The notes below the pieces were generated by a model. The model searched no databases, was not told where the DNA came from, and was given only the letters and a program-made list of their open reading frames with translations. From NCBI GenBank assembly GCA_964463485.1, contig CAYXDO010000049.1:1889-65888 (forward strand): a DNA stretch of 64,000 bases. Direction: 5' to 3'. The translations under genes and the position numbers were made by a program. Position 1 is the first letter of the stretch, and each line of letters starts with the position of its first letter. Shown one piece after another: positions 11,143-55,419 of the stretch. This DNA is from an uncultured Myxococcales bacterium (GTDB taxonomy: Bacteria > Myxococcota > Kuafuiibacteriia > Kuafuiibacteriales > Kuafuiibacteriaceae).

Positions 11143-11438
11143 GACAGGGGCCTTTTCAATTGCGGTGCCAAACGCCTCGAGGCCCGATCGCACCACCGAT
11201 CGGCCTCCGCGCAGCCCCAAGTTCCCACCCTGAGAAGGCCCAGTTCCCAGGGTGCGCCGCGCACGGTCGGTTTGAGATCGCGACGCGAGCGTCGTTTTGC
11301 GACCACTACGGCCCCGCGCCTGCAACTCGTCCGACCCATGGTTCGCCATCGGCATCGGCCGCCTTCCGACGTGGGCCCGAAGCGCGGCTGCTTGCGCTCC
11401 CAGGGGTCCGCGAAGGCTACTCATTCTTGCCCGGGACC

Positions 11439-11546
11439 GCGGGCATCTTGCCTGCGGCTGCGTCGTACGAAGTGAGCCCTTCGGTCGCTGGTGCAGGCAT
11501 CTTGCCTGCGGCTACGTCTTATGGAGTGAGTCCTTCGGTCGCTGGG
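11439..11546. repeat. Two 54-bp tandem units, each starting with a REP-like hairpin GC(A/G)GGCA-TCT-TGCCTGC
   Basis: Units start at 11439 and 11493. A related hairpin lies at 53308-53328. Confidence 0.75.
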
Positions 11547-11556
11547 ACCCCCGAAC

Positions 11557-12213
11557 CTACCGGCCGATTCCAGCCTCGCCGCGCGCTTCGGCGAGCAGCT
11601 CCGCGAGGGTTCCAAGATCGGCGGTCGCAAACCGATCGAGGTGAGCCAGCGCTCCGAGCTTGGTCCTCCAGGGCTCCCCGATCGCGAGCTGGCCGACGAG
11701 CTCGCCGATTCGGTGTTCCTTGGTCGTATGAGTGCCCCGTGCACTCAGCACGGCCTTAGCGAGCTTCTCGGCGGCTTGCTGCAAATGATAAGCGGCGAGC
11801 CGGTTGATGGGGGGCACGGACAGCCGCCGGGCAGCATCCAAGTCCTCGTCCGCCGCGGCGAGGTACCCAAGGGCGATCGGACTTGGAGCCACACGCTCGC
11901 CATACACCTGAACGCCTTCGAGCGCGACGGTCCGGCAGAGCGAGCCTGCAAAGCGACGCATCGTCTCGAACTCCCCGCGGCGAACCGGAACGATGTCGAC
12001 GGGCTCTGGAGCGTCACGAGCACAAGTATCCCAAGCCTTGGCCTGGTCGAGCGAGTCGTCCGAAGAGTCGTCTGGCAGCACCAGCAGCAGATCCCAGTCG
12101 CTCGTGGTCGTGGCGTCGCCTCGAGCGCGGCTCCCAAATACCCAAACCTGCTCCGGCCTCGTCCGCTCGACGACGTGGCGAAGCAACTCTCCGGGAATGA
12201 CCGAGCCCGCCAT
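11557..12213 (-). CDS. Minimal nucleotidyltransferase (MNT) - HEPN fusion protein
   Basis: VFGSRARG...SDWDLLLV (MNT), then ADEDLDAARRL...AYHLQQAAEKLAKAVL...KEH (HEPN), in one frame. Confidence 0.82.
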   Translation of the reverse strand: MAGSVIPGELLRHVVERTRPEQVWVFGSRARGDATTTSDWDLLLVLPDDSSDDSLDQAKAWDTCARDAPEPVDIVPVRRGEFETMRRFAGSLCRTVALEGVQVYGERVAPSPIALGYLAAADEDLDAARRLSVPPINRLAAYHLQQAAEKLAKAVLSARGTHTTKEHRIGELVGQLAIGEPWRTKLGALAHLDRFATADLGTLAELLAEARGEAGIGR

Positions 12214-12345
12214 CGCTGAAGCATACCACCGTGGCCCGGTGTTCCTTCTCAGTGCTCTCCAGGGTTCATGCGGAGGTTGAACTGAACCGCCGCAGATCGG
12301 TCGTGCACCCGCTCGGGGTCGACGGCGTCGATCTCAAGCTCTAGA

Positions 12346-13779
12346 GTGCGCGCCGTGAGCTCAGAAGTTCGCAGCATCCACTTGATCGGCATCTGCGGGA
12401 CCGGGATGGGTTCGTTCGCCGGCCTGCTCCACGCCGCCGGTTACCAGGTCCGCGGGAGCGACGAGAACGTCTACCCACCGATGTCCGACGCCCTGGCGGA
12501 GTGGGGGATCGAGGTCCGAAAAGGTTATCGCCCCGAGAACCTCGACCCAGCTCCGGATCTCGTCGTCGTCGGCAACGTGATTCGCCGGACCAACGCGGAA
12601 GCCCAAGCGGCCGTGGATCGTGGGCTCAATTACACGTCCTTCCCCAAGGCCCTCGGCGACCTCTTCCTCGAGCAACGGCACTCCGTCGTGGTCGCAGGCA
12701 CCCACGGCAAGACCACCACGACCAGCTTGGTCGCGTGGCTCCTGACCTCCGCGGGCCGAGACCCGGGCCTGTTGGTCGGCGGCCTGCCCGCGAACTTCAC
12801 GCAGGGCTTTCGGCTCGGAAACGGCCCGCACTTCGTCGTCGAAGGCGACGAATACGACACCGCCTACTTCGACAAGGTCCCTAAGTTTCTTCATTACAAG
12901 CCCAAGACCTTGATCGCGACCTCCCTCGAATACGATCACGCCGACATTTACGCGAACGTCGAGGCGATCGAGCGGGAGTTCGACAAGCTCTTCGCGTTGG
13001 TACCCGAGTCAGGGCGCATCCTCGCGTGCGCCACTTGGCCCAGAGTCGTCGCGCGAAAGGGCTCCGCCAGGGCGCCCGTCGAGACGTACTCCGCGCGACC
13101 AGGTATCGAAGCGGACTGGACGCTCGAAGACGTCGAGATGGGGCCCGGCGGAGTCGAGATGAGCGTCGTGTTTCGCGGCGTTCGGAAGGGCCACTTCGTG
13201 TTCCCGATGTCTGGCCTTCACAACGCCGAGAACGCGCTCTCCGCGATCGCCTTTGCGTTCGGCGCGGGACTCTCTCAGGACGAGATCCGCATGGGCCTCC
13301 GCACGTTCTTGGGCGTCGCGCGAAGGCAGACCGTTCGCGCGGAGGTCGATGGCGTGCGTATCATCGACGACTTCGCGCACCATCCCACCGCCGTGCGAGA
13401 GACGATCGCGGCGATCCGCAGCCGCTACCCCAACGGCAGGCTGATCTCGATCTTCGAGCCGCGCTCGGCGACCAGCGCACGCGCGCACTTCCAGGCGGAG
13501 TATGCGACCGCCTTCGCCGGCTCCGATCGTGTGATCATTGCAGGCGTAGGGCGCGCGGAGATCAAAGAGGGCGAGCGCCTCGACATCCAGAAGCTCGCGG
13601 CGGAGATTCGGCAGAGCGGAGTCGCTGCGGAGAGCATCGCGTCGGTCGACGACATCGTGAGCGCCCTCGCCGCAGACGCCAAGCCTGGCGACTCGCTCCT
13701 GTTCATGTCGAACGGAGCCTTCGGGGGCATCTACGGAAAGATGGAAGCCGCGTTGAGGGCCAAAAGCAGCCCGCGCTGA
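12346..13779 (+). CDS. mpl: UDP-N-acetylmuramate:L-alanyl-gamma-D-glutamyl-meso-diaminopimelate ligase (murein peptide ligase)
   Basis: IHLIGICGTGMG, GTHGKTTTT, EGDEYDTAYFDK, DDFAHHPTAV and MSNG are Mpl-type motifs. Confidence 0.9.
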   Translation: MRAVSSEVRSIHLIGICGTGMGSFAGLLHAAGYQVRGSDENVYPPMSDALAEWGIEVRKGYRPENLDPAPDLVVVGNVIRRTNAEAQAAVDRGLNYTSFPKALGDLFLEQRHSVVVAGTHGKTTTTSLVAWLLTSAGRDPGLLVGGLPANFTQGFRLGNGPHFVVEGDEYDTAYFDKVPKFLHYKPKTLIATSLEYDHADIYANVEAIEREFDKLFALVPESGRILACATWPRVVARKGSARAPVETYSARPGIEADWTLEDVEMGPGGVEMSVVFRGVRKGHFVFPMSGLHNAENALSAIAFAFGAGLSQDEIRMGLRTFLGVARRQTVRAEVDGVRIIDDFAHHPTAVRETIAAIRSRYPNGRLISIFEPRSATSARAHFQAEYATAFAGSDRVIIAGVGRAEIKEGERLDIQKLAAEIRQSGVAAESIASVDDIVSALAADAKPGDSLLFMSNGAFGGIYGKMEAALRAKSSPR

Positions 13780-13806
13780 ACGCCCGACCTCCGCGGCCCA
13801 CCCAAC

Positions 13807-14754
13807 CTACCAAAAACCTTTGTTGCTCCCGTACCAAGTGATCGTCCGCCGAATGCCCTCCGCAAAGAGAACCTTGGGAGAGTAGCCGATGAGCCGTTTG
13901 GCTCTCTCGATGTCGGCCAGCGAGTGTTTCACGTCGCCCACGCGCTCGGGGTCGTGAGTCGGCACGACGTTGGTCCCAAGCACGGCGTTGATCTCGCGAA
14001 CCAAGTCCAGCAGGTCGATGCGTTCGCCGCACGCCACGTTCATCACCTCGCCCGCGCATGCCCTGTCCGCTTCGCAGGCCGCGAGGTTGGCGGCGACGAC
14101 GTTGTCGATGTACGTGAAGTCGCGCGACTGCTTGCCGTCTCCGTGGATGGTCGGGGGCGTGCCGCTCTGAATCGCGGAGATGAACTTCGGGATCACCGCC
14201 GAGTAGAAGCTCGTCGGATCTTGTCGGGGTCCAAAGATGTTGAAGTAGCGAAGGGACACCGTCTCGAGCCCAAACGTCTGGAAGAACACGCGGCAGTAGA
14301 GCTCCCCGGCGAGCTTCTGGATCGCATAAGGGCTCAACGGTTTGGACTCCATGCTCTCGACCTTCGGAAGCGTCGGCGTGTCGCCGTAGGCCGACGAAGA
14401 GGCCGCGTACACGAAGCGCCTCACCCCGGCGTCCCGAGCTGCGACGAGCATGTTGACCGTGCCGGAAACGTTTACGGAGTTGGTCTCGATCGGGAGCGCC
14501 ACGGACTTTGGCACCGACGGGAGCGCAGCCTGGTGAAGCACGAAGTCGACGCCATCGACCGAGCGTCGCGCCGTGGCCAGATCCGTGACGCTGCCCTCGA
14601 GGAGCTCGATTCGCCCGCGGAAGGGCTCCAGATTCTTGCGACTCCCCGTCGAAAAGTCGTCGAGCACGCGAACGCGGTCCCCCCGAGCCACGATCGCTTC
14701 GACGATATTCGACCCTATGAAGCCGGCCCCGCCGGTCACGAGAAACAAGGCCAT
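13807..14754 (-). CDS. NAD-dependent nucleotide-sugar epimerase/dehydratase (extended SDR)
   Basis: VTGGAGFIGS, HQAALPSVP, YAIQK, LRYFNIFGPRQDP. Confidence 0.9.
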   Translation of the reverse strand: MALFLVTGGAGFIGSNIVEAIVARGDRVRVLDDFSTGSRKNLEPFRGRIELLEGSVTDLATARRSVDGVDFVLHQAALPSVPKSVALPIETNSVNVSGTVNMLVAARDAGVRRFVYAASSSAYGDTPTLPKVESMESKPLSPYAIQKLAGELYCRVFFQTFGLETVSLRYFNIFGPRQDPTSFYSAVIPKFISAIQSGTPPTIHGDGKQSRDFTYIDNVVAANLAACEADRACAGEVMNVACGERIDLLDLVREINAVLGTNVVPTHDPERVGDVKHSLADIERAKRLIGYSPKVLFAEGIRRTITWYGSNKGFW

Positions 14755-14876
14755 CCGTCCCGCCCCATGGGGCGCAGAGCCGCGCGAGTCAACCTCCTCG
14801 CTCCGCCCGCGGAGACGCTCCGTCTACGCCCGAACCCTCATCGACTCGTCCCGAGCTTTCTGTATCATCCGCCGCG

Positions 14877-15827
14877 ATGGTCGATCTTCCTGCGCGGCAC
14901 GAGCCTTGGTGGAGCCGCTCGGGGACCGCGATGGCCGCCGACGGCACGCCGCTGGCGTTCGCGTCCGGCGGGCCCGAGCGAGCGCGAGCGATCGTCGCCT
15001 GCAACGGCCTCGGGGTCTCGACGTTCTTCTGGGACTATGTCGGGCGCCGCTTCGCTCGCGACCACCAGGTCGTGGTGTGGGACTATCGAGGCCACGGCGC
15101 GTCCGGCGAGCCGAGCCACTTGGGGCACATGCGTATGGCCGACGTCGCTGACGACCTCGCCCGGGTCATGGACGCCAATCAAGTCGACCGCGCGCTCCTG
15201 CTCGGACACTCGCTCGGCTGCCAAGTCATCCTCGAGTTCTTCCGCCTCTTCCCGGATCGAGTGCTCGGGCTCGTACCCATCCTCGGCGCCTACGGCCATG
15301 CGGCCGAGACGTTCATCGACCCTCGCGTGGGTCGCGCCGCGCTCGACGTCGCTTATGCCGTCGGCACGCGCGTGCCCGAGGTCATCAACCTCGCCGGACG
15401 CGTCGCGTTGCGAAGTCGAATCGCGTGGCCTTTTGCGCGCCTCACCGGCCTCGTCCATCGCGACATGTGCCGGCGCGAAGACATGGACCCCTACCTCGAG
15501 CACTTGTCCCGCATGAACAGCCGCGTCTTCGTGGAGATGGCGCGAGCCGCGCAGGAGCACGACGCGGGCCCGTGGCTCGGCGAGATCCGTTGCCCCACGC
15601 TCGTCGTGGCCGGAGAACGAGATCTCTTCACCCCTCGTCATCTGTCGTTGGAGATGGCCCAGCGGATCCCGAACGCAGAGCTCCTCGAGATCCCGCGCGG
15701 ATCGCACGCCGCGCTGATCGAGCAGCCGGAGCTCATCAACCTCCGACTCGAAAAGTTCATACGAGACCGGCTCGTTCCGTTCGAGGCCGAAACCCAGAGC
15801 ACCATCGCCGCAGCCCCGGCCTCCTGA
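14877..15827 (+). CDS. Alpha/beta hydrolase
   Basis: WDYRGHG, GHSLG nucleophile elbow, GERDLFTP, GSH catalytic His. Confidence 0.85.
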   Translation: MVDLPARHEPWWSRSGTAMAADGTPLAFASGGPERARAIVACNGLGVSTFFWDYVGRRFARDHQVVVWDYRGHGASGEPSHLGHMRMADVADDLARVMDANQVDRALLLGHSLGCQVILEFFRLFPDRVLGLVPILGAYGHAAETFIDPRVGRAALDVAYAVGTRVPEVINLAGRVALRSRIAWPFARLTGLVHRDMCRREDMDPYLEHLSRMNSRVFVEMARAAQEHDAGPWLGEIRCPTLVVAGERDLFTPRHLSLEMAQRIPNAELLEIPRGSHAALIEQPELINLRLEKFIRDRLVPFEAETQSTIAAAPAS

Positions 15828-34646: not shown

Positions 34647-34759
34647 AAACTACTCTCCGAATCGCGCTCTCGACGTCCTGAGACACTGATGTGATGGTGG
34701 GTGGGTCCCAGTGACTTAGGGGCCGTCAAGGAACTACCGGCTTTGATCGACGAGCTCGG

Positions 34760-35001
34760 GGTGACCGGACTCATCGGATTCGCAGCTTCGCGACCACGAC
34801 CGAATTACCGGATCAACTTGGTCTCCGATTGGCCAAGGCCGCACTCGCCATCGGAAAGGACGCCGTCCGCCTCAGATGAGGGTGACCAGACTCTTCGGAT
34901 TCGCAGCTTCGCGACCACGACCGAATTACCGGATCAACTTGGTCTCCGATTGGCCAAGGCCGCACTCGCCATCGGAAAGGACGCCGTCCGCCTCAGATGA
35001 G
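34760..35001. repeat. 121-bp direct tandem repeat, 2 copies (34760-34880, 34881-35001)
   Basis: The units differ at 2 positions by manual comparison. Confidence 0.9.
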
Positions 35002-35301
35002 TATACTTTCTCGCGCCGAACGCGCCCGAGCTCAGCTTCGATGACTCACTCCGAAGCTCCGGCAATCTCCGCCTCCAGCGCTCGCAGCGAAGCCAAGACG
35101 TCGCGCACGTCGGACGCATGGATTCCGGGCCCAACCCTCGTGCGTACATCGAGAAATCGTCGCTCGAACCTGGCCAGCTCGGGCGGCTCGACTTTGGAGC
35201 TCGACGCGCGGATCCGTGCGAAAACACCAACCAAGCGGTCCTCCAAAAAACGTTCGCCTTCGAACGAACCCAGATCCAACTCTGCCAAGCCACCGCGGGC
35301 C
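34994..35301 (-). pseudogene. Orphan copy C of the 3' end plus flank of the kinase at 49132-51792
   Basis: Aligns to 49080-49387 with ~25 mismatches. The reading frame is intact (LAELDLGSFEGERF...ASE*). Confidence 0.9.
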
Positions 35302-35313
35302 CGGGCAGTGCCC

Positions 35314-35455
35314 TTCGAACAGTGCCGGGCACCGCTCGAAATGGGCGGCACCGCTCGAAATGGGCGGCACACCGCTCGAAATGGGCGAAATGGGCAAGGC
35401 AGCTTCGTATTCGGTAGGAGCGCTGTTCGAAATGGGTCGGCACCGTTTGAAAAGG
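35314..35455. repeat. Cluster of short repeats with core GCACYGYTYGAAA (one inverted copy, then about five direct copies)
   Basis: ttcgaacagtgcc at 35314, ggcaccgctcgaaatgggc x3 (35328-35386), variants at 35420 and 35439. Confidence 0.85.
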
Positions 35456-35473
35456 CGCACTGCTGTATGCCGA

Positions 35474-35818
35474 CTACTTAGGAAGCCAGGCACACGATCC
35501 CTTGCCGCACCCACACCGGAGCGCGAACCGCTCGGCCCGCTGGCACGGGCAGACCGTTGTGAGGATGTGCAGGCAATAGGGAAAGTAAGATATGCAGGCT
35601 CCTGGCTCACAGCCGTAGTCCCCACAGTCCGAGTCCTTCGTACATTCGCCGCCCCCCCCTCCGCAGAACGGCTCAGTGTCGGCCTCCTCGCCGCACTCCC
35701 GACAGACCGGATCTGAATCGCAGGCACTGACGGGGGTGCTCGGCTCGGCGGGTTCTCGACCGCAGCCCCACAAGCCAACTCCGAGCAAAAGGAGCGGGAC
35801 AATCGGTCGGCGCTTCAT
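35474..35818 (-). CDS. Small Cys-rich lipoprotein, eight-cysteine-cluster-like domain
   Basis: Lipobox LWGC; FCG...C..D.DC...GC....C...C.C....C.W. ATGA overlap with the upstream FN3 ORF. Confidence 0.75.
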   Translation of the reverse strand: MKRRPIVPLLLLGVGLWGCGREPAEPSTPVSACDSDPVCRECGEEADTEPFCGGGGGECTKDSDCGDYGCEPGACISYFPYCLHILTTVCPCQRAERFALRCGCGKGSCAWLPK

Positions 35819-36433
35819 GGCGGAAACACCGGTCGCCCGAAGTCAGAACAAGTCACGTGTCCGTCGAAATCGAGGCAGCTTCTTATTCGGTAGGAGCCCG
35901 CGAAACTGGCCTGCGGGTCCAAGAACTCCACTGAGGGAAACGGACCCAAATGTCCCCGCACCAAGGCGACGGTTTCATAGTACGAGTCTTCGGGGCTCGG
36001 ACCGACCCGAATTTCCCGCTCGATCTCGTAGGCGTTCGCGAGTGGGCAGCCATCGGTCCACGAGACGCGCATTTGACTACCGTCGAGAGGCAAGACCGCT
36101 CCAGCCCAAGTCACGGAAGGTTGGGTCAATGCTGTCGACCCGACGCACCCAGCCTCCGCCCGGCAACGGGCCGCTGACCGTCAGCCGGAAGTTGACCGTC
36201 GGGATTGGCCCCGACCGCGACCAGGAGATGGGGAGAATGTCAAATCCAGGCGCGCCGACCAGGAAATTGGTGGGAACTTCTGGGACAATACTCACCGTGT
36301 CGAAGGAAACGGGTTCGGTCCACCCAGAGCAGACGACGCCGTCGACGGCGTCGCGACAGGCCCTGACGGACACGTCATAGGTCACACCCGGATGAAGCCC
36401 TTCCACCGCAGCGCGAGTTTGCGGTCCGATCAC
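35815..36433 (-). pseudogene. 5'-truncated, frameshifted fibronectin type III repeat protein
   Basis: FN3 motifs (GLHPGVTYDVSVRAC; VSWTD...YEIER) are split over two frames (36077-36433 and 35815-36129). No signal peptide. Confidence 0.75.
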
Positions 36434-36639
36434 ACGGTTGGCTAGTTAATTAGATCCGTTCCCGGTCCGGGTCCGGGTCCCGAAATTACTGGGCTCTTGC
36501 CCACTCGCCTGGGATCGTGGTGGCCGGTGACGGGCTCGCCGGTCATTCGAGGCGAGTACGCGATCTCCCGAATTTCGCACTCCGGGCGAACGGACTTGAG
36601 TGCCGCGACGCCGCCCGACACCATAGGGGGGGGGAGACC

Positions 36640-36924
36640 CTACTCGCCGCGAGCAACCCGGCGGAAGTTCTCGTCGACCCACTGGCACTTGTGCTCGACA
36701 CAGGCACAAACGAGGTCATAGGGCTCCGGATTCTCGCACGCTATTTTTATGTGCGTCGCGTGAGTTTGGATTTCCTTCGTGGCGCATAGCCTCGCCCAGC
36801 CCGATGCGTTGCACTCCGTGTCGCTCGTGCAATAGTCGAACTCACTGAAACCGCAGAACTCATCGGAGCTGCATCCTAGGACGGCGGCCATCGCCGCCGT
36901 AATTAGCGCTCGCGGCCCCATCAT
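36640..36924 (-). CDS. Small Cys-rich lipoprotein, eight-cysteine-cluster-like domain (paralog of 35474-35818)
   Basis: Lipobox VLGC; FCGFSEFDYCTSDTEC...CACVEHKCQW. ATGA overlap at 36921-36924. Confidence 0.75.
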   Translation of the reverse strand: MMGPRALITAAMAAVLGCSSDEFCGFSEFDYCTSDTECNASGWARLCATKEIQTHATHIKIACENPEPYDLVCACVEHKCQWVDENFRRVARGE

Positions 36925-37490
36925 TCGACTTGGCACGCCGCTGTACAGCCATCGCCGTCGTCCGTGTTGCGATCGTCGCACTGCTCTCCGGCGTCGACTC
37001 GGTGGTTGCCGCAGACGCGAGCCAAGGCGAGATTACTCCATTCCGAGCACGCCGAATCGACACATGAACGAACAAAATACCGCCCCTGAAGGAGGACGTC
37101 GGGATCAACAATCGAGAGAGTCGGCAAGGGACCTTGGTGACCTTGGACGAAATGGTTCACCCAATCCATTGGAATGGGACCCGGTGCAGAGCCCGGCCAA
37201 TCAGATACGATTTGGTAGAGGTTTGCTTCCACGTTGCAGTCGGCCCAACTCAGTTGAACATCATCGCCCATCACCGAAGTGACTCGAAGGCCGGCTGGAG
37301 CGCAAGGCACGAATCCATCGGTCTGTTGAGGGAGGAACGCGTTGGCGCAGCCATCGAGGGAGCACGCACGCACATTGATGACGTACGTCCGGGTCTTTCT
37401 GAGGTTGTCAAAGGTGAAGCTGCGGGCGGACGCAGGTAGCGGTCGCTGCGGAAACCGATGATCACGTGTCCAGGCTACCACTTCATACTG
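36921..37490 (-). pseudogene. 5'-truncated FN3 repeat protein ending in a Myxococcus cysteine-rich repeat
   Basis: FDNLRKTRTYVINVRAC, a full FN3 domain, then CGNHRVDAGEQCDDRNTDDGDGCTAACQVE. It begins mid-domain at a hexamer repeat tract. Confidence 0.78.
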
Positions 37491-37614
37491 TCGGGGTCGA
37501 AGTCGGAGTCGGAGTCGGAGTCGCCGCCCTCGGCCGACCAAGTCAGTCGCACGTCGTCGCCTTGCGACTCCCCGAGCTCATCGTCCGAGACACGGTGACA
37601 CTCGATGCCTTCGC

Positions 37615-38160
37615 CCGCAGCCTGCTGCCGTTCGGTGACTCGGTCTGGGCAGTGCTACCTTGGGAAGGCCGGCTGGTTCGCTTGGTGCCCAGATGAGTAT
37701 ACTTTCACGCGCCAAGCGCGCCCGAGCTCAGCTTCGATGACTCACTCCGAAGCTGCGGCAATTTCCGCCTCTAGCGCTCGCAGCGAAGCCAAGGCGTCGC
37801 GCACGTCCGACGCATCGATTCCGGGCCCAACCCTCGTGCGTACGTCGAGAAATCGTCGCTCGAACCTGGCCAGCTCGGACGGCTCGACTTTGGCGCTCGA
37901 CGCGCGGATCCGAGCGAGAACACCCTTCAGACGCTCCTCCAAAAATCGTTCGCCTTCGAATGAACCCAGATCCAGCTCTGCCAAGGCACGGCGGGCCGCC
38001 ACTTCGTCTCGAGCGGCCACCGCGTCTCGCAGCCTTCGTCCGACTTCGGCCGTCGAAGGCACCAACAACAGGTCCGAAAGCTCGAGCCCACGGGAACGTA
38101 GCTCCGCGCTGACGGTCGTTCGGACGGCGTCGGCGGCCGGGGCCTTCGCAGGCCGCGGTT
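37615..38160 (-). pseudogene. Orphan copy B of the 3' end plus flank of the kinase at 49132-51792
   Basis: 37615-38100 is identical to 49005-49490 (486 bp, checked line by line); 38101-38160 is similar but diverged. Confidence 0.95.
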
Positions 38161-38163
38161 CGC

Positions 38164-38229
38164 GAAGCTTTTCGAACAGTGCCAGTGCGGGAAGCTTTTC
38201 GAACGGTGCCGAAGCTTTTCGAACAGTGC
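38164..38229. repeat. Three copies of gaagcttttcgaacRgtgc(c)
   Basis: Copies at 38164, 38191 and 38211. They share the 13-mer TTCGAACAGTGCC with 35314. Confidence 0.9.
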
Positions 38230-38426
38230 GACAAGCGCACCTATGATATGAAGGTCGCCTGACCATCAACCACCACCGGATCGCAGCTTCACGGCAACGG
38301 GCCGACGAGACTCCTTCGCGGCCCCTCGCACCGAAGGTTCCGTCGTTCGACCCAGCGAGCGCCGAGCCGTTGCTGACCAACTGGTGCTCATCACGCCTAT
38401 CTCGGCTGGCGTGCATCCTGCGACAA

Positions 38427-39893
38427 TCAAGAGCCTCGCAGAATCCGGCAACCCTCTGATTCCCGCTCGGACTCAACACAACCCATCGTCACCGATCGGA
38501 AATCACCGATGCCCACCAGAGCCCGTTCGAGCGGCGTCTCCCGCCCAAACACGACAACGGAAATGCGTTCGTACGTGCGTAGCGCCGTCACGATACGGTC
38601 GATCGCGGGAAGAGCCACGGTATCGTTGCCTCCCGAAAAGACGACTCGTAACCGGGTCGATCCCTCGATCGAGACGGCCACATACCCATCAGGTGCCGGC
38701 TGAAGCGCCAGCGTGAGGCGATCGGGATAGATTGAGATCCGGGGCGAATCAAGCATCGACCCCGGCAATCTTGCAGGCGATCCCTCCGCGACCGCAAGGC
38801 GAACCGCATCCTCATTTGCCAGGCGGCTCCAATCGAACGAAGCCACGATCACTGATGTCGTTCCGTCCGGCGCGCGAATCGACCACCGTGCAGGCGCACA
38901 GTTTGGAGGCTCGGAAATGACGTCAACAGCCCCTGGAACGAAGTTCCATGCACTGTCGTGCCTCGCCGCGATGGCCAACACCGTTTCATCGCACCGACCG
39001 ATCTCTGGAACTGCGAAGGTCGTCGTTGCGCTCGCGGGTGTCGACACTTCGAAAGTGAGGGCGTCCTGTCGATACTCGGGCCCGCAGTCGCCGGTACAGC
39101 TAGCCCGGACCATGATAGCGAGGTCTTCGGAAAAGCCCGATGTTGCGCCACGGAGAACTGGCAAGATCGCGCCAGGCCAAATGGCAGTACCGGGCCCTGA
39201 GCAGAACCGACCCGGCCGGGATGCATTGGCCAAAGTGAAAAAGAGCGAGGCACGCACGTTGCCTCCGATCGCCCAGGCTACGTAGTCACCAGAGACAGTC
39301 CGATGGTCGACGAGGCAGCCGAGCATTCCCGCTGGAACGTCGACACTGCCACAGTGGGGCTCGCCAGGTTGGTCGGAGATTCCGGGGGCTAAAAGAGATC
39401 GAGGTACCTCGACCGTCCTAGTCATCCCCGACTCCGGGTCGTAAACCTGGGGTTTCAGCGTATCGCAAAACAGTGAACTGATCCCAAGGTCGGACCGGTA
39501 CCTCGGGAGAGAGAGTCCACCGATCGCAAGGCGGATAGCGTCGGGGCTCGTGGCGGTCGTCGTGGAGAGGCGTCCTCGTACTCCGCTGGGGCGAGCACCT
39601 TCCTCCCGGCGGAGGGCGACACGGATTGGTTCGGATCCGCCAACGAGGAGCACGAGCATCGACTCATATTCCGCGCGCTCGAGCAGAACAAAGTTGGCAG
39701 GTTTGGACTGGTAGAAATGAACGATCCCACCTTGCGCGCTCACCTTGCCTTCTGCTGCCGTTGCCTGAACGTCGCCAAGTAACTTCTGGTTCTCGTCGTA
39801 GATAAGGGCTCCGAAAGAATACGCCGGAAACGGATCCGGGCCTTCGTCACCAGCGCATGCGGCGAAAACGGCGAGGCCAATGCACGCCCTCAT
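38427..39893 (-). CDS. Hypothetical lipoprotein (488 aa), translationally coupled to the giant upstream gene
   Basis: Lipobox FAAC. ATG at 39893 overlaps the TGA of the upstream ORF (ATGA). Confidence 0.72.
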   Translation of the reverse strand: MRACIGLAVFAACAGDEGPDPFPAYSFGALIYDENQKLLGDVQATAAEGKVSAQGGIVHFYQSKPANFVLLERAEYESMLVLLVGGSEPIRVALRREEGARPSGVRGRLSTTTATSPDAIRLAIGGLSLPRYRSDLGISSLFCDTLKPQVYDPESGMTRTVEVPRSLLAPGISDQPGEPHCGSVDVPAGMLGCLVDHRTVSGDYVAWAIGGNVRASLFFTLANASRPGRFCSGPGTAIWPGAILPVLRGATSGFSEDLAIMVRASCTGDCGPEYRQDALTFEVSTPASATTTFAVPEIGRCDETVLAIAARHDSAWNFVPGAVDVISEPPNCAPARWSIRAPDGTTSVIVASFDWSRLANEDAVRLAVAEGSPARLPGSMLDSPRISIYPDRLTLALQPAPDGYVAVSIEGSTRLRVVFSGGNDTVALPAIDRIVTALRTYERISVVVFGRETPLERALVGIGDFRSVTMGCVESERESEGCRILRGS

Positions 39894-49131: not shown

Positions 49132-51792
49132 TCACTCCGAAGCTGCGGCAATTTCCGCCTCTAGCGCTCGCAGCGAAGCCAAGGCGTCGCGCACGTCCGA
49201 CGCATCGATTCCGGGCCCAACCCTCGTGCGTACGTCGAGAAATCGTCGCTCGAACCTGGCCAGCTCGGACGGCTCGACTTTGGCGCTCGACGCGCGGATC
49301 CGAGCGAGAACACCCTTCAGACGCTCCTCCAAAAATCGTTCGCCTTCGAATGAACCCAGATCCAGCTCTGCCAAGGCACGGCGGGCCGCCACTTCGTCTC
49401 GAGCGGCCACCGCGTCTCGCAGCCTTCGTCCGACTTCGGCCGTCGAAGGCACCAACAACAGGTCCGAAAGCTCGAGCCCACGGGAACGTAATTCCGCGCT
49501 GACGGTCGTTCGGACGGCATCTGCGGCCAGGGCCTTCGCCGGCCGCCGTTCCGCCGACGAACCGCGGCGGAGCCCCACCGGAAGCGACTTCGACTTCACC
49601 CTCGCCCATGGCTTGGTGCTCTCCTGGGCCACTGTCGCCGTCGGTGAAAAAACGGCCGAAGCCTCTCGATCCACCTCTGACGCGACCTCGAGTCGCGGAG
49701 CTGCGCTCGCCTCCACACTGGGCGCGGGCTCAGCAGCCAACTCGACCGGCGCTCTCTGCCCCAACAACTTCGCGCCCAAGAGTACGATCGCGATCGACGC
49801 CAAGCACACCGTAAGAGCCGCGATCAACCGAGCGAGCCGGCCCCTCGGAGCCGCGATGACACGAGTCGCGGCTCCTACCCCAGCCAAGAGCTCGACCGAC
49901 GCGAGCGCCTCCGAGGCAGTCGGCCGGTCCCTGACCTCTCGGCACAACATCGCCGTGATGAGCGGCCCCAATGGACCCGCACGTTCGCTGACCACCGGCG
50001 CTCCCGACAGCCTCCGCTCAGCCACCTGCCGCGCCGGCCCCGTGAATGGCCCGGCTCCGTCCAGCATGTAGATCGCCAACAGCCCAACCGAATAGATATC
50101 CGTTGGTGCACCAACGATCTCTGGATTTTGAAGCTGTTCTGGGGACAAGAACCGAAGCGTGCCGACCACGTCGCCGGCGCGCGTGAGGCGGGTAGACTCG
50201 CTCTCCGTCGGCAGAGCGACCCCGAAGTCGAGCACCTTCACCCGACCGTCGTCGAGCTTCATCACGTTGGCCGGCGATAGGTCGCGATGCACGTAGCCCG
50301 CCGCATGAACCTCCTCCAGGGTGGCCAGCACCGAACGAATGATCGGGGCGACCTCGTCCAGCGGCAACGGCCCACGATCTTCGACGATCCCGCGCACGGT
50401 CTTGCCGCGCAAGAGCTCCATCACCATGTAGAGGCGACCGTCGGGTGTGGATCCGCGGTCGATGACCTTCACCAAGCCCTGGTGACTCAACTTCGTCAGC
50501 GCGTCGATCTCGCGGCGAAAACGCTCGTGGGCCCTTCGATGGGTTGCCGGCGTGTGGAGGATCTTGAGCGCGTAGGTCTCGCCGGAGTCCTCACGCACGG
50601 CTTTGAAAACCTCCCCAAAGCCGCCACGGCCGATCGACGCCTGAATTCGATACTCACCGAAGCGAATCGCCGTCTCGTCCTCCTCCGGCGCCGTTGTTTC
50701 GCTCTCTTCGGGCTTGGCATCCCGTGGCTGCGCTCGCTGAGGATCGGGCGCCGTCACGGAGTCAGCCCGTGCCTTCGTGGGCTCGCTCGATCCGGCGGAC
50801 TCCGACGACAGCAGCGACGGCACCGCGACTGCATCGGGCACGTCCGCATTCTCTTCAGGGACCGCAAACAACGCGCTCAAGGGGCTCCGCGCCTTCGGTC
50901 GACCGCCTTGACGCAGACCCGCCATGACCTCGACGAGTGTGTCGCGAGGATCGAGATCGTCACGACTCGCGATCGCTGCGAGCAGCGCACGCCGAAGCTC
51001 GAGGGCGCTCTTCGTGCGGCCCTCGCGCTGAGCGACGAGGGCGCGGGAGATGGGTGTAATCAGGTCGGGCGGGAGACCCGACGGCAGCTCGACCGGCTGT
51101 CCCGCGATCACCTTGCGCCGCAAGGACTCGGAGGCCATCGGATTCTCACCCGAGAGGACCCGAACCAGCACGAGCCCGAGCGCAAAAATATCCGCGCGCG
51201 GATCCGCGACCTCCCCGCGATGCTGCTCGGGCGCCATCCACTCCAGCTTCCCCTTCGAAATGCCCACCTTCGTTCGCGCTTGGCGAGCGTGCGCGAGCGC
51301 GATCCCGAAGTCCGCGAGCTTCACGTCCCCGGCAAAGGAAACCAACACGTTCTCCGGGCTCACGTCCCGATGCACGACACCCAATGAACGTCCGTCACCG
51401 TCTTTCGCGGAGTGGGCATGCTCCAGCGCACGCGCGAGCTCGGAGACTATGAACAACGCCGCTGTCTCGGGGAGCAACTCGCGCCGCTCGGCGCGCTGAT
51501 CTTCGAGCGTCGAAAGATCGACGCCGTCGATCAACTCGAGCGCCTGGAAGGGCGCCCCGTCTAGCTCGCCAAAGTCGAGCAGCGAGACGATGTTCCCGTG
51601 TGAGAGCTGGGAAAGAATTCGGGCCTCATCCAAGAACCCAGCCACGAGCTCGGGATCGTCGAGACTCTCTCGGAGAAGCCGCTTGATGGCTACTCGCCGT
51701 GAGAACCCAAACGCCCCGTGTGATGTCGCCTCGTAGAGGTCCGCCATCCCCCCCCGCTGGATCAGCCGGACCAACTCGTAGCGGGATGCCAC
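49132..51792 (-). CDS. Ser/Thr protein kinase with two tandem kinase domains, TM helix and C-terminal helical domain
   Basis: First domain HRDVSPEN/DFG/WMAPEQ; second domain IGRGGFG/HRDLSPAN/DFG/FLSPEQ. Confidence 0.92.
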   Translation of the reverse strand: MASRYELVRLIQRGGMADLYEATSHGAFGFSRRVAIKRLLRESLDDPELVAGFLDEARILSQLSHGNIVSLLDFGELDGAPFQALELIDGVDLSTLEDQRAERRELLPETAALFIVSELARALEHAHSAKDGDGRSLGVVHRDVSPENVLVSFAGDVKLADFGIALAHARQARTKVGISKGKLEWMAPEQHRGEVADPRADIFALGLVLVRVLSGENPMASESLRRKVIAGQPVELPSGLPPDLITPISRALVAQREGRTKSALELRRALLAAIASRDDLDPRDTLVEVMAGLRQGGRPKARSPLSALFAVPEENADVPDAVAVPSLLSSESAGSSEPTKARADSVTAPDPQRAQPRDAKPEESETTAPEEDETAIRFGEYRIQASIGRGGFGEVFKAVREDSGETYALKILHTPATHRRAHERFRREIDALTKLSHQGLVKVIDRGSTPDGRLYMVMELLRGKTVRGIVEDRGPLPLDEVAPIIRSVLATLEEVHAAGYVHRDLSPANVMKLDDGRVKVLDFGVALPTESESTRLTRAGDVVGTLRFLSPEQLQNPEIVGAPTDIYSVGLLAIYMLDGAGPFTGPARQVAERRLSGAPVVSERAGPLGPLITAMLCREVRDRPTASEALASVELLAGVGAATRVIAAPRGRLARLIAALTVCLASIAIVLLGAKLLGQRAPVELAAEPAPSVEASAAPRLEVASEVDREASAVFSPTATVAQESTKPWARVKSKSLPVGLRRGSSAERRPAKALAADAVRTTVSAELRSRGLELSDLLLVPSTAEVGRRLRDAVAARDEVAARRALAELDLGSFEGERFLEERLKGVLARIRASSAKVEPSELARFERRFLDVRTRVGPGIDASDVRDALASLRALEAEIAAASE

Positions 51793-51875
51793 AAAGAGAG
51801 GCTATACACATTTATAGGACGAGAGATCGGCAACTCGTCCTGGCGCAGAAGGCCTCCGTCTCGTACCGTCTCGCG

Positions 51876-53228
51876 GTGTCCAGAACCGTAGCTCACCACG
51901 TGCCGACCGTGCCGGTCCGACGCCTTCGTGTCGATGTCCTCGATGGCCCCGACGCGGGAAAAAGCCACATCGCCTCCGCGGACGTCATCACGCTCGGCAC
52001 CGCGCCAGGCAACGATCTCATCCTCACCGACCCCACCGTGTCCGGCTATCACCTGGAGCTCCGGTGCGAGGACAACAAGATCACACTCGTCGACCACGGC
52101 TCCACGAACGGCACGGCGCTCGGAGGCGTGCGCCTCGAACGCGCGTCGATCCCCCCAGGAACCCTGCTCAAACTCGGCCGGACCGAGATCCGAGTCGACG
52201 ACGAAGGGACCGTCGACTGCGAAATCCTCGGCGGCGATCACCTGGGCGCCGTGCGCGGCCGCTCTTCGGTCATGCGCAGACTCCTCGCAACCCTGGAGCG
52301 CGCCGCGCGAAGTGATACTTCCGTCCTCCTCCTCGGAGAGACCGGGACTGGCAAAGAAGTCCTCGCCCGCGCCCTCCACGAAGCCAGCCCCCGCCGGGAC
52401 CACCCATTCGAAACCGTCGACTGCGGGGCCTTGATCCCCACACTCACCGCAAGTGAGCTGTTCGGACACGAACGCGGTGCCTTCACCGGCGCCGAACAAC
52501 AACACATCGGAGCCTTCGAACGCGCCCAAGGCGGAACGGTCTTCCTCGATGAGATCGGAGAGCTCCCGCCCACGATCCAAGTAATGCTCCTCGGCGTCCT
52601 CGAACGACGAGTCATGAAACGGCTCGGGGGCAAGACGCCCATTCCCGTCGACGTCCGTGTCGTCGCGGCGACGAACCGGGATCTTCGTGAGGAGGTCAAC
52701 AAAGGGACCTTCCGACAAGACTTGTACTACCGAATCGCGGTACTCATGCTAAGAGTACCGCCGCTTCGCGAACGGCTCGACGACATCCCCATACTCATCG
52801 AGCATTTCCTGCGGGAAGACGGCTACTCGGGACCCATCGAATCGGTGATCGGCCGCTCCGTGCTCTCCACTCTCTCGAGTCATCGCTGGCCCGGCAACGT
52901 CCGCGAGCTGCGAAACTTCGTGGAGGTCGCGCGCGCCATGGGTGAGGCGCCGCCTCTACATGAGTCTGTGGACGCGGAGTCCGCCCCGCACCAAGAGCCC
53001 GCCCCGGAGGGGCTCGCGGTCGACATATCGATCCGAGGGCTCGAGGCGCAGCGCCCGCTCTACAAGGAGCTTCGAGAGATTGTAGTTCGGAAATTCGAGG
53101 AGATTTTCCTCGACCACCTCATGGAACGTACGAGAGGCAACGTCGCCAAGGCGGCTCGAGAGGCCGAGATGGATCGAAATTATCTGACTCAGCTCTTGCA
53201 CCGGCACGGCAAGAAATCGAAGCCCTGA
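51876..53228 (+). CDS. FHA-domain sigma-54-dependent transcriptional activator
   Basis: FHA DHGSTNGT, GETGTGKE, ELFGHERGAFTGA, WPGNVREL, HTH. Start moved to GTG 51876 to avoid overlapping the divergent kinase. Confidence 0.92.
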   Translation: MSRTVAHHVPTVPVRRLRVDVLDGPDAGKSHIASADVITLGTAPGNDLILTDPTVSGYHLELRCEDNKITLVDHGSTNGTALGGVRLERASIPPGTLLKLGRTEIRVDDEGTVDCEILGGDHLGAVRGRSSVMRRLLATLERAARSDTSVLLLGETGTGKEVLARALHEASPRRDHPFETVDCGALIPTLTASELFGHERGAFTGAEQQHIGAFERAQGGTVFLDEIGELPPTIQVMLLGVLERRVMKRLGGKTPIPVDVRVVAATNRDLREEVNKGTFRQDLYYRIAVLMLRVPPLRERLDDIPILIEHFLREDGYSGPIESVIGRSVLSTLSSHRWPGNVRELRNFVEVARAMGEAPPLHESVDAESAPHQEPAPEGLAVDISIRGLEAQRPLYKELREIVVRKFEEIFLDHLMERTRGNVAKAAREAEMDRNYLTQLLHRHGKKSKP

Positions 53229-53418: not shown

Positions 53419-54483
53419 CTACTCTCCCTTGGCCTTGGCCGCCCGCTCTTTCGCCGCGGCCTTCAGCGCCTCAACTCGCTTCTTCTTCGCCTCGGCCTCC
53501 GACTCCTCTTGTGGCGGCTCGGGCTCGGGCTCTTGCGGAGCCCTGAGTTGCTCGCGATCGTCGTCTCGCGGCGCGAACACCGCGGCGCGTCCTTTGTTCA
53601 AATCGAACTTCTTGGCTTTGGAGCTCGGCGGCGCGGGTCGCGCTCGCTGCTTCGGCGGTGGCGCGGCAGGTTCTTCCACGCCGGCAGGCTCGGGCGCCTT
53701 GACGGGCCTCGGCTTCTTCGGCTTCGGCGGCTTGACCTCGACGACGAACCCATCGGCGTCTTCGGTCATTCCGGCACCCACCCCTGTCGACGCCAACCCG
53801 CGACGAGGCGCCGGCGCCTGCGGAGCCAATTTCGGCGCAGCCGCCCGCTCCTTGTCCTTCGTCTCCGCCAACACCTTCGCGTCTTCAGGCAGAAGCAAGG
53901 TATTCGCTTGGTCCCGATCCATCCGAGACAGGTCGAGCCCCTGGGCCGCAAAAAGCGTCAGCAGGGCTTCGGGCCCGTGCTCGAGCGCGTAGCTCGCCTC
54001 CTCCTGGTACACCGGCAACGCCCACAACACCTCCGCCGCGCGGTCCCGCCACTCGATGCGTCGAAAGGCGGGAACGAATGACACCGGCGGCATCAACACG
54101 ATCGCGTCCAGGTTCGAAATCGAAGCCAGATCGTCGCGAGCCGGGATCACGTCTCCGACCCCGATCGCCACGCCCTGACGCTCCGCGTACAGCGCCAAGG
54201 AACCAAGCAAGCGCGCGACCGCCTCGGCTCCCTCGAGGGTGGGTCGAGGCCGCAGCATGAAAATACCTTCCATCCGACGGCCGTCCTTCATCACGACCTG
54301 CGACGCCCCGCACGTCGCGAACAACACCGGCGCGTCCCCCCCGCCGGGCGCGAAAAACGCAATCTCCAGCGACGGAAGCGATGGTGATACACCGCCGCCG
54401 AGCGCCAACACGTCCGCCGGCGGACCAAGATGCCGAACCAAATGTTCTCGAACGACCAGGACGTCTGGACTTGGATCTGCCAT
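53419..54483 (-). CDS. Suppressor-of-fused (SUFU)-like domain protein with charged low-complexity tail
   Basis: FATCGAS, IGVGDVI, and VLWALPVYQEEASYALEHGPEALL...DLSR.DR, typical of bacterial SUFU domains. Confidence 0.75.
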   Translation of the reverse strand: MADPSPDVLVVREHLVRHLGPPADVLALGGGVSPSLPSLEIAFFAPGGGDAPVLFATCGASQVVMKDGRRMEGIFMLRPRPTLEGAEAVARLLGSLALYAERQGVAIGVGDVIPARDDLASISNLDAIVLMPPVSFVPAFRRIEWRDRAAEVLWALPVYQEEASYALEHGPEALLTLFAAQGLDLSRMDRDQANTLLLPEDAKVLAETKDKERAAAPKLAPQAPAPRRGLASTGVGAGMTEDADGFVVEVKPPKPKKPRPVKAPEPAGVEEPAAPPPKQRARPAPPSSKAKKFDLNKGRAAVFAPRDDDREQLRAPQEPEPEPPQEESEAEAKKKRVEALKAAAKERAAKAKGE

Positions 54484-55419
54484 GAGACTCTCCAATCGGG
54501 TATCTCAAGTCCGGCTGTTCGCCAAGAGGACCCTTTGCCGCTTCCCAAGAGCCCCTATCCGCGTGGCGAGCTCGCCGGCACCGTTCGCCGCATGTTCCTC
54601 GGCCAAAAGGGCCCCCGCGCCCAACCCTGCGAGCTCATCCTGTCGAAGCGATCAGCCTCCCTCCACCTCGTCTTCGTCGGAGACATCCTGCCCTTGCTGT
54701 TCCGCCGGGTCGCCTTCGAGCCCGACGTCCTGGAGCTCTTCGCCGACGCCGATCTCGTCGTCGGCAACCTGGAGGGCGTCGTCACCGACCGACCCTGGTT
54801 CCCTTTCCTTCAAAAACATTCTCCCGACATCCTGGACGCCCTCCAACTCCTCGCCCCCCTCCCCCGCTGGATCCTCAACCTCGCCAACAATCACGCCGGT
54901 GACTACGGACCCCTCGACTTCTCACGAACCGCCGCCCTCATCGATCGCCGGGGCGCGCGTTTCGTCGGAACGACCGAAAAACCGAGACTCATACTCGCGC
55001 CCAACGTGACACTCACCAGCTGGACGGAGTGGTCGAATCACCCCGCGCCATGGGTTCAAACCCACAACCCAGGAGCCCCCGAGAGTCCGGACCTCCACAT
55101 CGCGTACCCTCACTTCGGCCATGAGTTCGAACGCGAACCCAGACCCGATCGAGGTCCGCCAGACGGATACGAGCTCGTCGTCGGCCATCACCCACACTTC
55201 CCTCAACCCATCATGAGAAGACGCAACCAACTCGTCGCTTGGTCCCTCGGCAACTTCCTCACCGAAGTCAGACTACCCACGATGGGCGAAGGCCTCGTCG
55301 CTCGCGTGGGCATCGCCACCGACGGCCACGCCGCCGTGACCAGCTGCCGCGCGATGCCCATCTTCATCGACCGATCGAAAGAAAACGTAGTCGTGGTGAG
55401 ATTGTCGCCTATGAGATGA
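54430..55419 (+). CDS. CapA/PgsA-family metallophosphoesterase (start uncertain, probably downstream)
   Basis: FVGDI, NLEG, LANNHAGDYG, HFGHE, GHHPH, SLGNF. Confidence 0.8.
   Translation: MPNQMFSNDQDVWTWICHETLQSGISSPAVRQEDPLPLPKSPYPRGELAGTVRRMFLGQKGPRAQPCELILSKRSASLHLVFVGDILPLLFRRVAFEPDVLELFADADLVVGNLEGVVTDRPWFPFLQKHSPDILDALQLLAPLPRWILNLANNHAGDYGPLDFSRTAALIDRRGARFVGTTEKPRLILAPNVTLTSWTEWSNHPAPWVQTHNPGAPESPDLHIAYPHFGHEFEREPRPDRGPPDGYELVVGHHPHFPQPIMRRRNQLVAWSLGNFLTEVRLPTMGEGLVARVGIATDGHAAVTSCRAMPIFIDRSKENVVVVRLSPMR

Follow-up and report, generated by a model that had tools for sequence, protein, structure and literature searches.

Bacterial teneurin-like proteins (TLPs) are capsule-type polymorphic toxins that share a layout in which adhesin domains are followed by TTR, TIP (teneurin insertion protein; the domain name is taken from the same source), FN-plug and NHL domains, a YD-shell and an Rhs core, with a toxin of ~15 kDa at the C-terminus (PMC13018210). 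Autoproteolysis takes place at two sites, the Rhs core and G723|S724 of an FN-plug loop that lies inside the shell, and Raoelijaona et al. (Nat Commun 2026; PMC13018210) describe the superfold formed by FN-plug, NHL and YD as invariant across phyla. Here we analyse a 64,000-nucleotide stretch of DNA from an uncultured Myxococcales bacterium (contig CAYXDO010000049.1; the whole stretch is hereafter termed the window), which carries on its minus strand, at positions 39890-48784, a single uninterrupted open reading frame (ORF) of 2,964 codons counted from TTG. Similar to the Bacillus inaquosorum TLP (BiTLP; solved structure, PDB 9ifo/9pt5), the encoded protein contains adhesin repeats and then TTR, TIP, FN-plug and NHL domains in the same order, followed by the first YD repeats, and a further gene lies immediately downstream. 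In contrast with BiTLP, it lacks a YD shell past ~110 residues, an Rhs motif and the FN-plug loop, and its NHL propeller bears a 457-residue insertion. The chain ends in a module with a predicted zinc-metalloprotease domain (Table 1). The reading we favour, with a probability of roughly 0.6, is that this is a real fusion in which a zymogen-type zinc protease terminates an adhesin-rich scaffold of teneurin origin, one that has ceased to encapsulate anything. The TLP family is enriched in Myxococcota; proteins such as the one described here fell outside the search reported in PMC13018210 because matches to all three hidden Markov models (HMMs), FN-plug, NHL and YD, were required there.

A teneurin-like scaffold without its capsule

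Residues 795-1345 of the window protein match residues 393-985 of BiTLP end to end with no large gaps (domain E 1e-101; full E ~4e-121), which settles the identity of the TTR, TIP and FN-plug domains and of the first NHL blade. Residues 1767-2199 align with BiTLP residues 923-1353, which cover NHL blades and the start of the YD repeats (E ~1e-99), and the scaffold can also be aligned to metazoan teneurins (E ~1e-40). A Pfam scan of the whole protein detected TEN_NHL (2.6e-28) and NHL (4.5e-23); the FN-plug model, at residues 1129-1195, reached 18 bits and is thus under its cut-off of 27.8 bits. The two BiTLP alignments (E ~1e-121 and ~1e-99 in round figures) bear out an earlier note on this DNA, made from the sequence alone, in which FN-plug and NHL motifs were recognized.

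The same note had reported only a few YD-like repeats, at ~42600-42290, and no Rhs core, and both observations hold. The YD stub aligns to residues 1251-1353 of 9ifo/9pt5, where the YD repeats begin (domain E 1e-5 and 3e-6), and to full-length TLPs as far as residues 2148-2192. When the protein was compared by BLAST with 12 TLP homologs, homology extended over residues 796-1343 and from 1804 to ~2150-2190; past this point the YD shell of the full-length TLPs runs on for another ~900 residues, which have no counterpart in the window protein. No match to RHS_repeat, TEN_YD-shell or RHS (PF03527) was found in the Pfam scan of the window protein, and a regular-expression scan showed that PxxxxDPxG and the bipartite DPxG-x(~20)-DPxG motif are absent from the whole protein. 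The second self-cleavage device is missing as well. In BiTLP the FN-plug loop, which is located deep within the shell, holds C719 and the G723|S724 self-cleavage site (PMC13018210). The window protein has a deletion of ~16 residues between P1091 and E1092 (window ~45511/45512), and the gap recurs in the 9ifo alignment. When 13 TLP cores were aligned with MAFFT, the 'C..GS[IV]I.CQNQ' loop was missing in the window protein and in two relatives, P0021 and P0022, and was kept in the other 10. Among those with the cleavage loop are P0051 and P0069, for which Pfam gives no YD match.

The two relatives that lack the loop are informative with respect to how the capsule was lost. P0022, a paralog of 1,890 residues, is encoded on a separate contig, JACQYO010000005.1, of the metagenome-assembled genome (MAG) GCA_016208175.1, which also carries the annotated form of the window protein (positions 10001-15673 of locus L004 for P0022); the assembly of a paralog is labelled 'Deltaproteobacteria bacterium'. 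The TTR/TIP/FN-plug/NHL core of P0022 is 38-43% identical to that of the window protein, and P0022 also contains the first ~160 residues of the NHL insertion and a YD stub about as long as that of the window protein, which is followed by a stop codon. The GC content at third codon positions (GC3) of P0022 is 0.77 and host-like all along, the stub included. P0021 is a 52%-identical fragment from a different MAG that carries the NHL insertion. The first ~160 residues of this insertion form a domain common to P0021 and P0022 (alignment A2), and its first 164 residues yielded no Pfam family and no PDB sequence match. The later part, consisting of He_PIG immunoglobulin (Ig)-like domains (6.6e-09), is confined, among the three proteins, to the window protein.

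As loss of the shell, loss of the plug loop and the propeller insertion are all found in the same three proteins, these characters travel together. Furthermore, P0022 has the same stub yet ends there, and thus the loss of the shell and the gain of the protease were separate events. The shell-less state has evolved, is not an accident of assembly, and is a trait of a small clade that is independent of the protease. The earlier note held that the toxin-enclosing shell had been replaced by a protease; the shell-less chimera survives this analysis, while replacement was an overstatement, since P0022 has the stub alone. The stub of P0022 ending at a stop codon, the shared deletion of the FN-plug loop and the shared NHL insertion are new here, and both the NHL insertion in the window protein and the uncertain start of its ORF (see below) had been overlooked.

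The C-terminal module and its rare family

Immediately behind the YD stub, at ~residue 2167, begins homology to a family of stand-alone proteins. Among 1.84 billion representative proteins scanned exhaustively with HMMER there were 19 matches, one of which is the window protein itself. Most of the other matches are 836-959 residues long and were aligned over essentially the full module; residues 27-798 of the module, for example, align with residues 79-863 of P0002 (3.4e-63). Because its relatives align over the full module, the window protein holds a whole mature, signal-less family member. Several of the relatives (836-894 residues) start with signal or lipoprotein-type peptides. The sequence that follows position 42290 is therefore not a continuing YD shell, in agreement with the earlier note, but is homologous to stand-alone proteins of ~850 residues. 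Word-index searches, both with the C-terminal 765 residues and with the family alignment (A1), gave no matches, and the exhaustive HMMER scan alone recovered the family. Residues 2166-2964 matched no Pfam or NCBIfam family except a sub-threshold PepSY, and PDB sequence and profile searches returned noise. The module represents a very rare, undescribed protein family without a Pfam or NCBIfam model. All the other copies that could be placed on DNA (two metagenome contigs, two Thermoanaerobaculia MAGs and three more metagenome loci) are stand-alone and have no conserved neighbour; the genes next to them were considered as possible paralogs of the family and rejected as such. The fusion is apparently rare, and unique in the collections searched.

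With respect to its parts, the module opens with a beta-sandwich (residues 2166-2325) that has its homolog at the mature N-terminus of the stand-alone members and that, in Foldseek, is weakly like small beta-sandwich proteins. In the AlphaFold model this domain precedes a PepSY-like domain, which agrees with the Ig-like domain and propeptide-like region proposed in the earlier note. The module contains the single HExxH of the entire protein, HEAAH. The earlier note had also picked out this motif and a downstream E-G pair; the motif is confirmed and the spacing corrected, E2749 lying 32 residues past the second histidine rather than 33. The 12 members of A1 share 21-31% identity with the window copy, and in them H2712, E2713 and H2716 are near-invariant, the one exception being a member in which they are deleted. 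E2749-G2750, six cysteines, RMPxAxKEG, WPDC, WET and RHG[IV]D are invariant in the alignment, and the window copy retains every conserved residue.

An AlphaFold2 model of the module built from A1 has a mean predicted local distance difference test score (pLDDT) of 71.7 and a predicted template modelling score (pTM) of 0.77, with many low-confidence loops. In the model a beta-sandwich, an alpha/beta region and a beta-rich lobe are followed by the HExxH helix, a helix bearing the glutamate, and a helical C-terminal lobe; the HExxH and Glu helices have pLDDT values of ~80-88. When AlphaFold was run on the single sequence the PepSY fold alone was confident (pLDDT ~80). The top match of the model to the PDB in Foldseek is the fungalysin propeptide of A. 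fumigatus (4k90_B; E 9.5e-4, probability 1.0), and the propeptides of the M4 vibriolysin MCP-02 (3nqy_A and 3nqz_A) were also matched with probability 1.0. M36 catalytic domains were retrieved with probabilities of 1.0 (4k90_A; template modelling (TM)-score 0.46 over 407 columns) and 0.99 (7qp3; TM-score 0.42). Sub-threshold Pfam similarities were to PepSY for the module (E 0.011) and to FTP for one member (E 0.0078); these and a weak similarity to myxo_dep_M36 lie towards the N-terminus, where they would be expected. Since a helix-loop-helix presenting H, H and E is predicted and the best PDB fold matches are M36 and M4 propeptides and the M36 catalytic domain, the reading as a shell-less chimera with a gluzincin-like protease stands, and the predicted HExxH region is compatible with the gluzincin fold that had been anticipated.

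The module would share with M36 fungalysins (Mep, 4k90; P. pannorum, 7qp3) and M4 enzymes (MCP-02, 3nqy; thermolysin) the HExxH motif with a glutamate on the next helix and, as modelled, a beta-rich N-lobe, a helical C-lobe and an N-terminal FTP/PepSY-type propeptide. An extended hhalign comparison with thermolysin, whose sequence was validated against the PDB, is colinear though non-significant. It places NAxW, HExxH (on HELTH), E-G/A-x-A/S-D (with E-G at the NEAISD glutamate) and the C-terminal helices opposite their thermolysin equivalents, and all three thermolysin zinc ligands sit opposite the H, H and E of the family. In contrast with thermolysin, the spacer between histidine and glutamate is 32 residues rather than 19. 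The extra N-terminal beta-sandwich, the six invariant cysteines and a C-x6-C at the C-terminus also distinguish the family from M4 and M36, as do the family-specific RMPxAxKEG, WPDCR, WET and RHG[IV]D motifs and the variable Asp of ExxxD. Taken together, these features suggest that the module resembles an M4/M36-type zymogen that lies outside both families by sequence models and is probably kin to them by fold and motif only. The gluzincin reading of the earlier note is therefore supported by the predicted fold; by HMM the module matches neither M4 nor M36.

Composition and origin of the fusion

GC3 is 0.758 over the initial 2,000 codons of the big ORF and 0.72-0.83 in 12 other genes in the window. 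In the C-terminal module (the last 799 codons) the value is 0.646, which agrees with the earlier impression that the C-terminal ~2.4 kb is less GC-biased, and in the ORF directly downstream it is 0.645. By its codon composition the module is foreign-looking. None of the known stand-alone homologs is the donor, as their GC3 is higher (0.78-0.91), and there is no tRNA in the window that would mark an integration site. The simplest history has two steps, in which a shell-less TLP gene was resident first and foreign DNA with a lower GC content later recombined with it, joining the protease precursor in frame; the foreign DNA probably also brought the downstream gene.

A proposed tethered zymogen and its alternatives

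In the explanation we propose, the recipient belonged to a TLP lineage that by then had neither a toxin capsule nor an Rhs core nor the self-cleaving FN-plug loop, and a signal-less protease precursor would have been joined in frame to its YD stub. After export, the N-terminal part would tether the protein at the cell surface, where the PKD, cadherin-like and Ig domains, together with the modified NHL propeller, could bind a target surface or polymer. The propeptide may keep the protease folded yet inhibited until it is autoprocessed. The ~40-45 kDa catalytic domain, a thermolysin/fungalysin-like domain with H2712, H2716 and E2749 as predicted ligands and E2713 as the predicted catalytic base, would then act locally, either bound non-covalently by its propeptide or freed beside the target. 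The earlier note envisaged display of the protease on an adhesin stalk. Fusion to the scaffold is upheld and permanent display is weakened because the module brings its own propeptide-like region, and so the catalytic domain may be released. A role in predation or biofilm remodelling, also raised in that note, is conceivable. A more specific scenario, which we advance tentatively and rate at a little under even odds, is that the TLP lineage turned its TTR-TIP-FN-plug-NHL head, with a domain newly set into the propeller, into a general display scaffold, and that one paralog captured horizontally what became the founding fused member of an undescribed gluzincin family, delivered as a tethered zymogen.

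Comparison with other systems places this arrangement in context. In contrast with the ~15 kDa toxins of TLPs, the C-terminal part of the window protein is 799 residues in length, has a propeptide of its own and cannot be enclosed in a capsule. Large extracellular metalloproteases are known from social and predatory bacteria in the form of the secreted M36 enzymes of myxobacteria (M. xanthus MepA, PMC4158809; NF038112). The PKD and cadherin-like repeats of NF038112, the 'myxosortase-dependent M36 metallopeptidase', match window residues 305-670 (9.3e-20), and the module aligns with the same model (myxo_dep_M36) at E 0.014 across 67 residues. In MepA and NF038112, however, the protease is N-terminal, the repeats are C-terminal and there is no teneurin scaffold. 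Similar to metazoan teneurins, the window protein has reused the TTR/FN-plug/NHL scaffold of a toxin carrier for something besides encapsulation; the metazoan proteins have given up the cleavages and retain the entire YD shell, whereas the window protein loses the shell and gains an enzyme. A clade that possesses the head but neither the capsule nor either of the self-cleavage devices shows that the scaffold can function alone in bacteria, which is relevant to the origin of animal teneurins as adhesion receptors. If the proposed reading is true, the clade provides a bacterial parallel to the transition from toxin to adhesion receptor behind animal teneurins. The fusion also suggests a way to aim a protease at a bound target, which is relevant to predation, matrix biology and protein engineering.

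It should be emphasized that several observations weigh against this interpretation. A single contig of one MAG is known to carry the fusion; no second example was present among the HMMER matches or the placed loci, and a metagenome scan for close relatives with residues 2000-2964 revealed no close ortholog. Peptidase HMMs from Pfam and NCBIfam, including M4, M4_C and M36, gave no significant match to the window protein or to the 12 members of A1, and no PDB sequence is significantly similar to the module. The Foldseek TM-scores are low (0.42-0.46, with E ~1e-2 to 1e-3), the hhalign match between the family and thermolysin is non-significant (P 0.013, probability 3%), and the Asp of the thermolysin 'ExxxD' is a His in the window protein and variable in the family. 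No signal peptide is in frame with the big ORF, a candidate being out of frame behind a run of nine C residues (C9), and the paralog P0022 has no signal peptide in any of its frames. Finally, a sharp compositional break at the junction was sought and not found, GC3 falling gradually from ~residue 2000.

Some of these observations could be explained if the locus were an artefact or a decaying relic, produced by mis-assembly of the metagenome or by a recent, non-functional recombination that left a pseudogene. Restriction to one MAG contig and to a single case in all the collections searched, the shift in composition near the junction, the possible frameshift at the 5' end with its signal peptide out of frame, and the following 3.7 kb, where nothing but short or doubtful ORFs and fragments of domains is evident, are in keeping with such an origin. 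The junction is, however, in frame and lies exactly at the start of the mature sequence of the stand-alone proteins, the module consists of 799 stop-free codons in which all the family-invariant residues are retained, and the shift in GC3 is gradual rather than abrupt. Furthermore, the shell-less scaffold is seen independently in P0022 and P0021, with common derived characters, and we thus view an artefact or relic as improbable. The lack of a peptidase HMM match, the low TM-scores and the non-conserved ExxxD Asp might instead indicate that the module is not a peptidase but a zincin-like binding fold or another metal-dependent hydrolase, and that the protein is purely an adhesin. This is the least probable of the alternatives and a very remote one, as conservation of the HExxH glutamate and of the three putative ligands is complete or almost complete at ~25% identity, which would be unexpected in a pseudo-enzyme, and the domain is preceded by a protease-type FTP/PepSY propeptide region, as indicated by Foldseek.

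It could also be argued that the protein is a capsule-free antagonistic effector directed against neighbouring cells and freed through autoprocessing of its propeptide, the downstream lipoprotein being the cognate immunity protein or inhibitor. The C-terminal domain of bacterial TLPs is a toxin accompanied in almost all cases by a downstream immunity gene, and some of these domains are predicted proteases (PMC13018210). Consistent with such an arrangement, the downstream lipoprotein-like ORF overlaps the stop codon of the big gene as ATGA and has an atypical GC3 that is equal to that of the module. This ORF, however, has no recognizable family, is absent beside the stand-alone members and the paralog, and is mostly uncalled in the public annotation. 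In addition, the stand-alone relatives have no partner gene and look like secreted lipoprotein enzymes of an ordinary kind, and a module of 799 residues is far above the size of TLP toxins. An effector of this type is therefore unlikely, although less so than an artefact or a non-peptidase module, and a tethered, zymogen-type protease on a shell-less teneurin scaffold is the interpretation we retain.

Gene start, other features and neighbouring genes

The true start of the ORF at 39890-48784 is uncertain. The annotated protein, P0001 (JACQYO010000024.1, MAG GCA_016208175.1), comprises 2,829 residues and starts 135 codons further in. The candidate N-terminus upstream (Table 1) is separated from the big ORF by the C9 run at 48720-48728, and three-frame translation shows that dropping one C merges the two frames. 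The frame break could be a sequencing or assembly error, a real frameshift or a coincidence. A special role for C9 as a phase-variation tract was considered and dropped, as the four G/C runs of at least 8 nucleotides per 64 kb fall within what chance would give at this composition.

The N-terminal domain (residues 57-305), for which neither a family nor a structure match was found, is 50% identical to the product of L004 10007-10735 (tblastn) and is also seen in alignment A2. In the adhesin-type repeats that follow, the Pfam scores are PKD_4 9.2e-20, Big_9 8e-25, Cadherin_4 2.4e-16 and He_PIG 3.5e-16, and NCBIfam reports a tandem-95 repeat and the tail of myxo_dep_M36.

Table 1. Features of the big ORF and of its surroundings in the window. 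Residues are numbered from the TTG codon.
Feature	Residues	Window positions	Strand	Basis or remarks
Candidate real N-terminus (status uncertain)		48720..48818	-	GTG at 48818, in another frame; signal/lipoprotein-like peptide VNRSQSKISHLLVCLLGAEAGCSD...
N-terminal domain	57-305	47870..48616	-	No Pfam family; also in paralog P0022
Adhesin-type repeats	305-790	46415..47872	-	One PKD, then cadherin-like, Big_9, He_PIG
TTR-like domain	799-883	46136..46390	-	PF25020 (TTR_TEN1-4) 7.7e-19; aligned to 9ifo/9pt5 and metazoan teneurins
TIP region	884-1084	45533..46135	-	Continuous 9ifo/9pt5 alignment; boundary with FN-plug approximate
FN-plug	~1085-1260	45005..45532	-	9ifo/9pt5 alignment; autocleavage loop deleted
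NHL blade 1	~1280-1346	44747..44947	-	Aligned to 9ifo/9pt5 900-985; TEN_NHL match
Insertion in NHL propeller, between blades 1 and 2	1347-1803	43376..44746	-	457 residues; full TLPs contiguous at this point
Rest of NHL propeller	1804-2053	42626..43375	-	NHL 1e-27, TEN_NHL 7.6e-27; matches 9ifo/9pt5 995-1255
YD-repeat stub	~2054-2165	42290..42625	-	~110 residues; equals first ~100 residues of YD shell
Beta-sandwich domain opening the module	2166-2325	41810..42289	-	Alignment A1; AlphaFold strands 5-156, pLDDT ~70-90
Propeptide-like FTP/PepSY-type region	2326-2540	41165..41809	-	Foldseek and sub-threshold Pfam
Predicted zinc-metalloprotease domain	2541-2964	39893..41164	-	A1 conservation, Foldseek
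HEAAH motif	2712-2716	40637-40651	-	
E-G motif	2749-2750	40535-40540	-	
WPDC motif	2822		-	
RHGID motif	2945		-	
C-terminal end of module			-	...C......CQ
Downstream ORF, up to 497 residues		38427..39899	-	Lipoprotein-like start MSMRACIGLAVFAAC; ATGA overlap with stop of big gene
fn3 and DUF4215 fragment		36921-37541	-	
Ser/Thr kinase		49132-51792	-	Two complete kinase domains
FHA-sigma54 activator		51699-53228	+	
SUFU-domain protein		53419-54495	-	PF05076 1.4e-15

Seven nucleotides ahead of the first ATG of the downstream ORF is a GAGG sequence, and the ORF appears, from its position and this sequence, to be translationally coupled to the big gene. The public annotation calls just its final 109 residues. 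No Pfam family was found for its product, and no homolog is present beside P0022 or beside the stand-alone proteases. Further downstream, the region at ~34700-38400 contains only short or doubtful ORFs, among them the fn3 and DUF4215 fragment, and has a lower GC content; these may be decayed genes that form one low-GC3 block with the protease module.

The Ser/Thr kinase gene and, next to it in divergent orientation, the gene for the FHA-sigma54 activator both lie directly upstream of the teneurin-like gene. The gene for the SUFU-domain protein is located on the same side, at a distance of ~4.6 kb; an immunity function in polymorphic toxin systems has been proposed for SUFU-like domains. These genes and the fn3 and DUF4215 fragment are in keeping with a Myxococcota-like organism. 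At the paralogous locus, P0022 has Dicty_CTDC-type Cys-rich repeats in place of the PKD and cadherin repeats, and it is followed by a gene whose product, of 443 residues, has no known family. A short tandem DNA repeat at L004 ~9470-9600, just upstream of the P0022 ORF, translates as WIRGFVDS x4.

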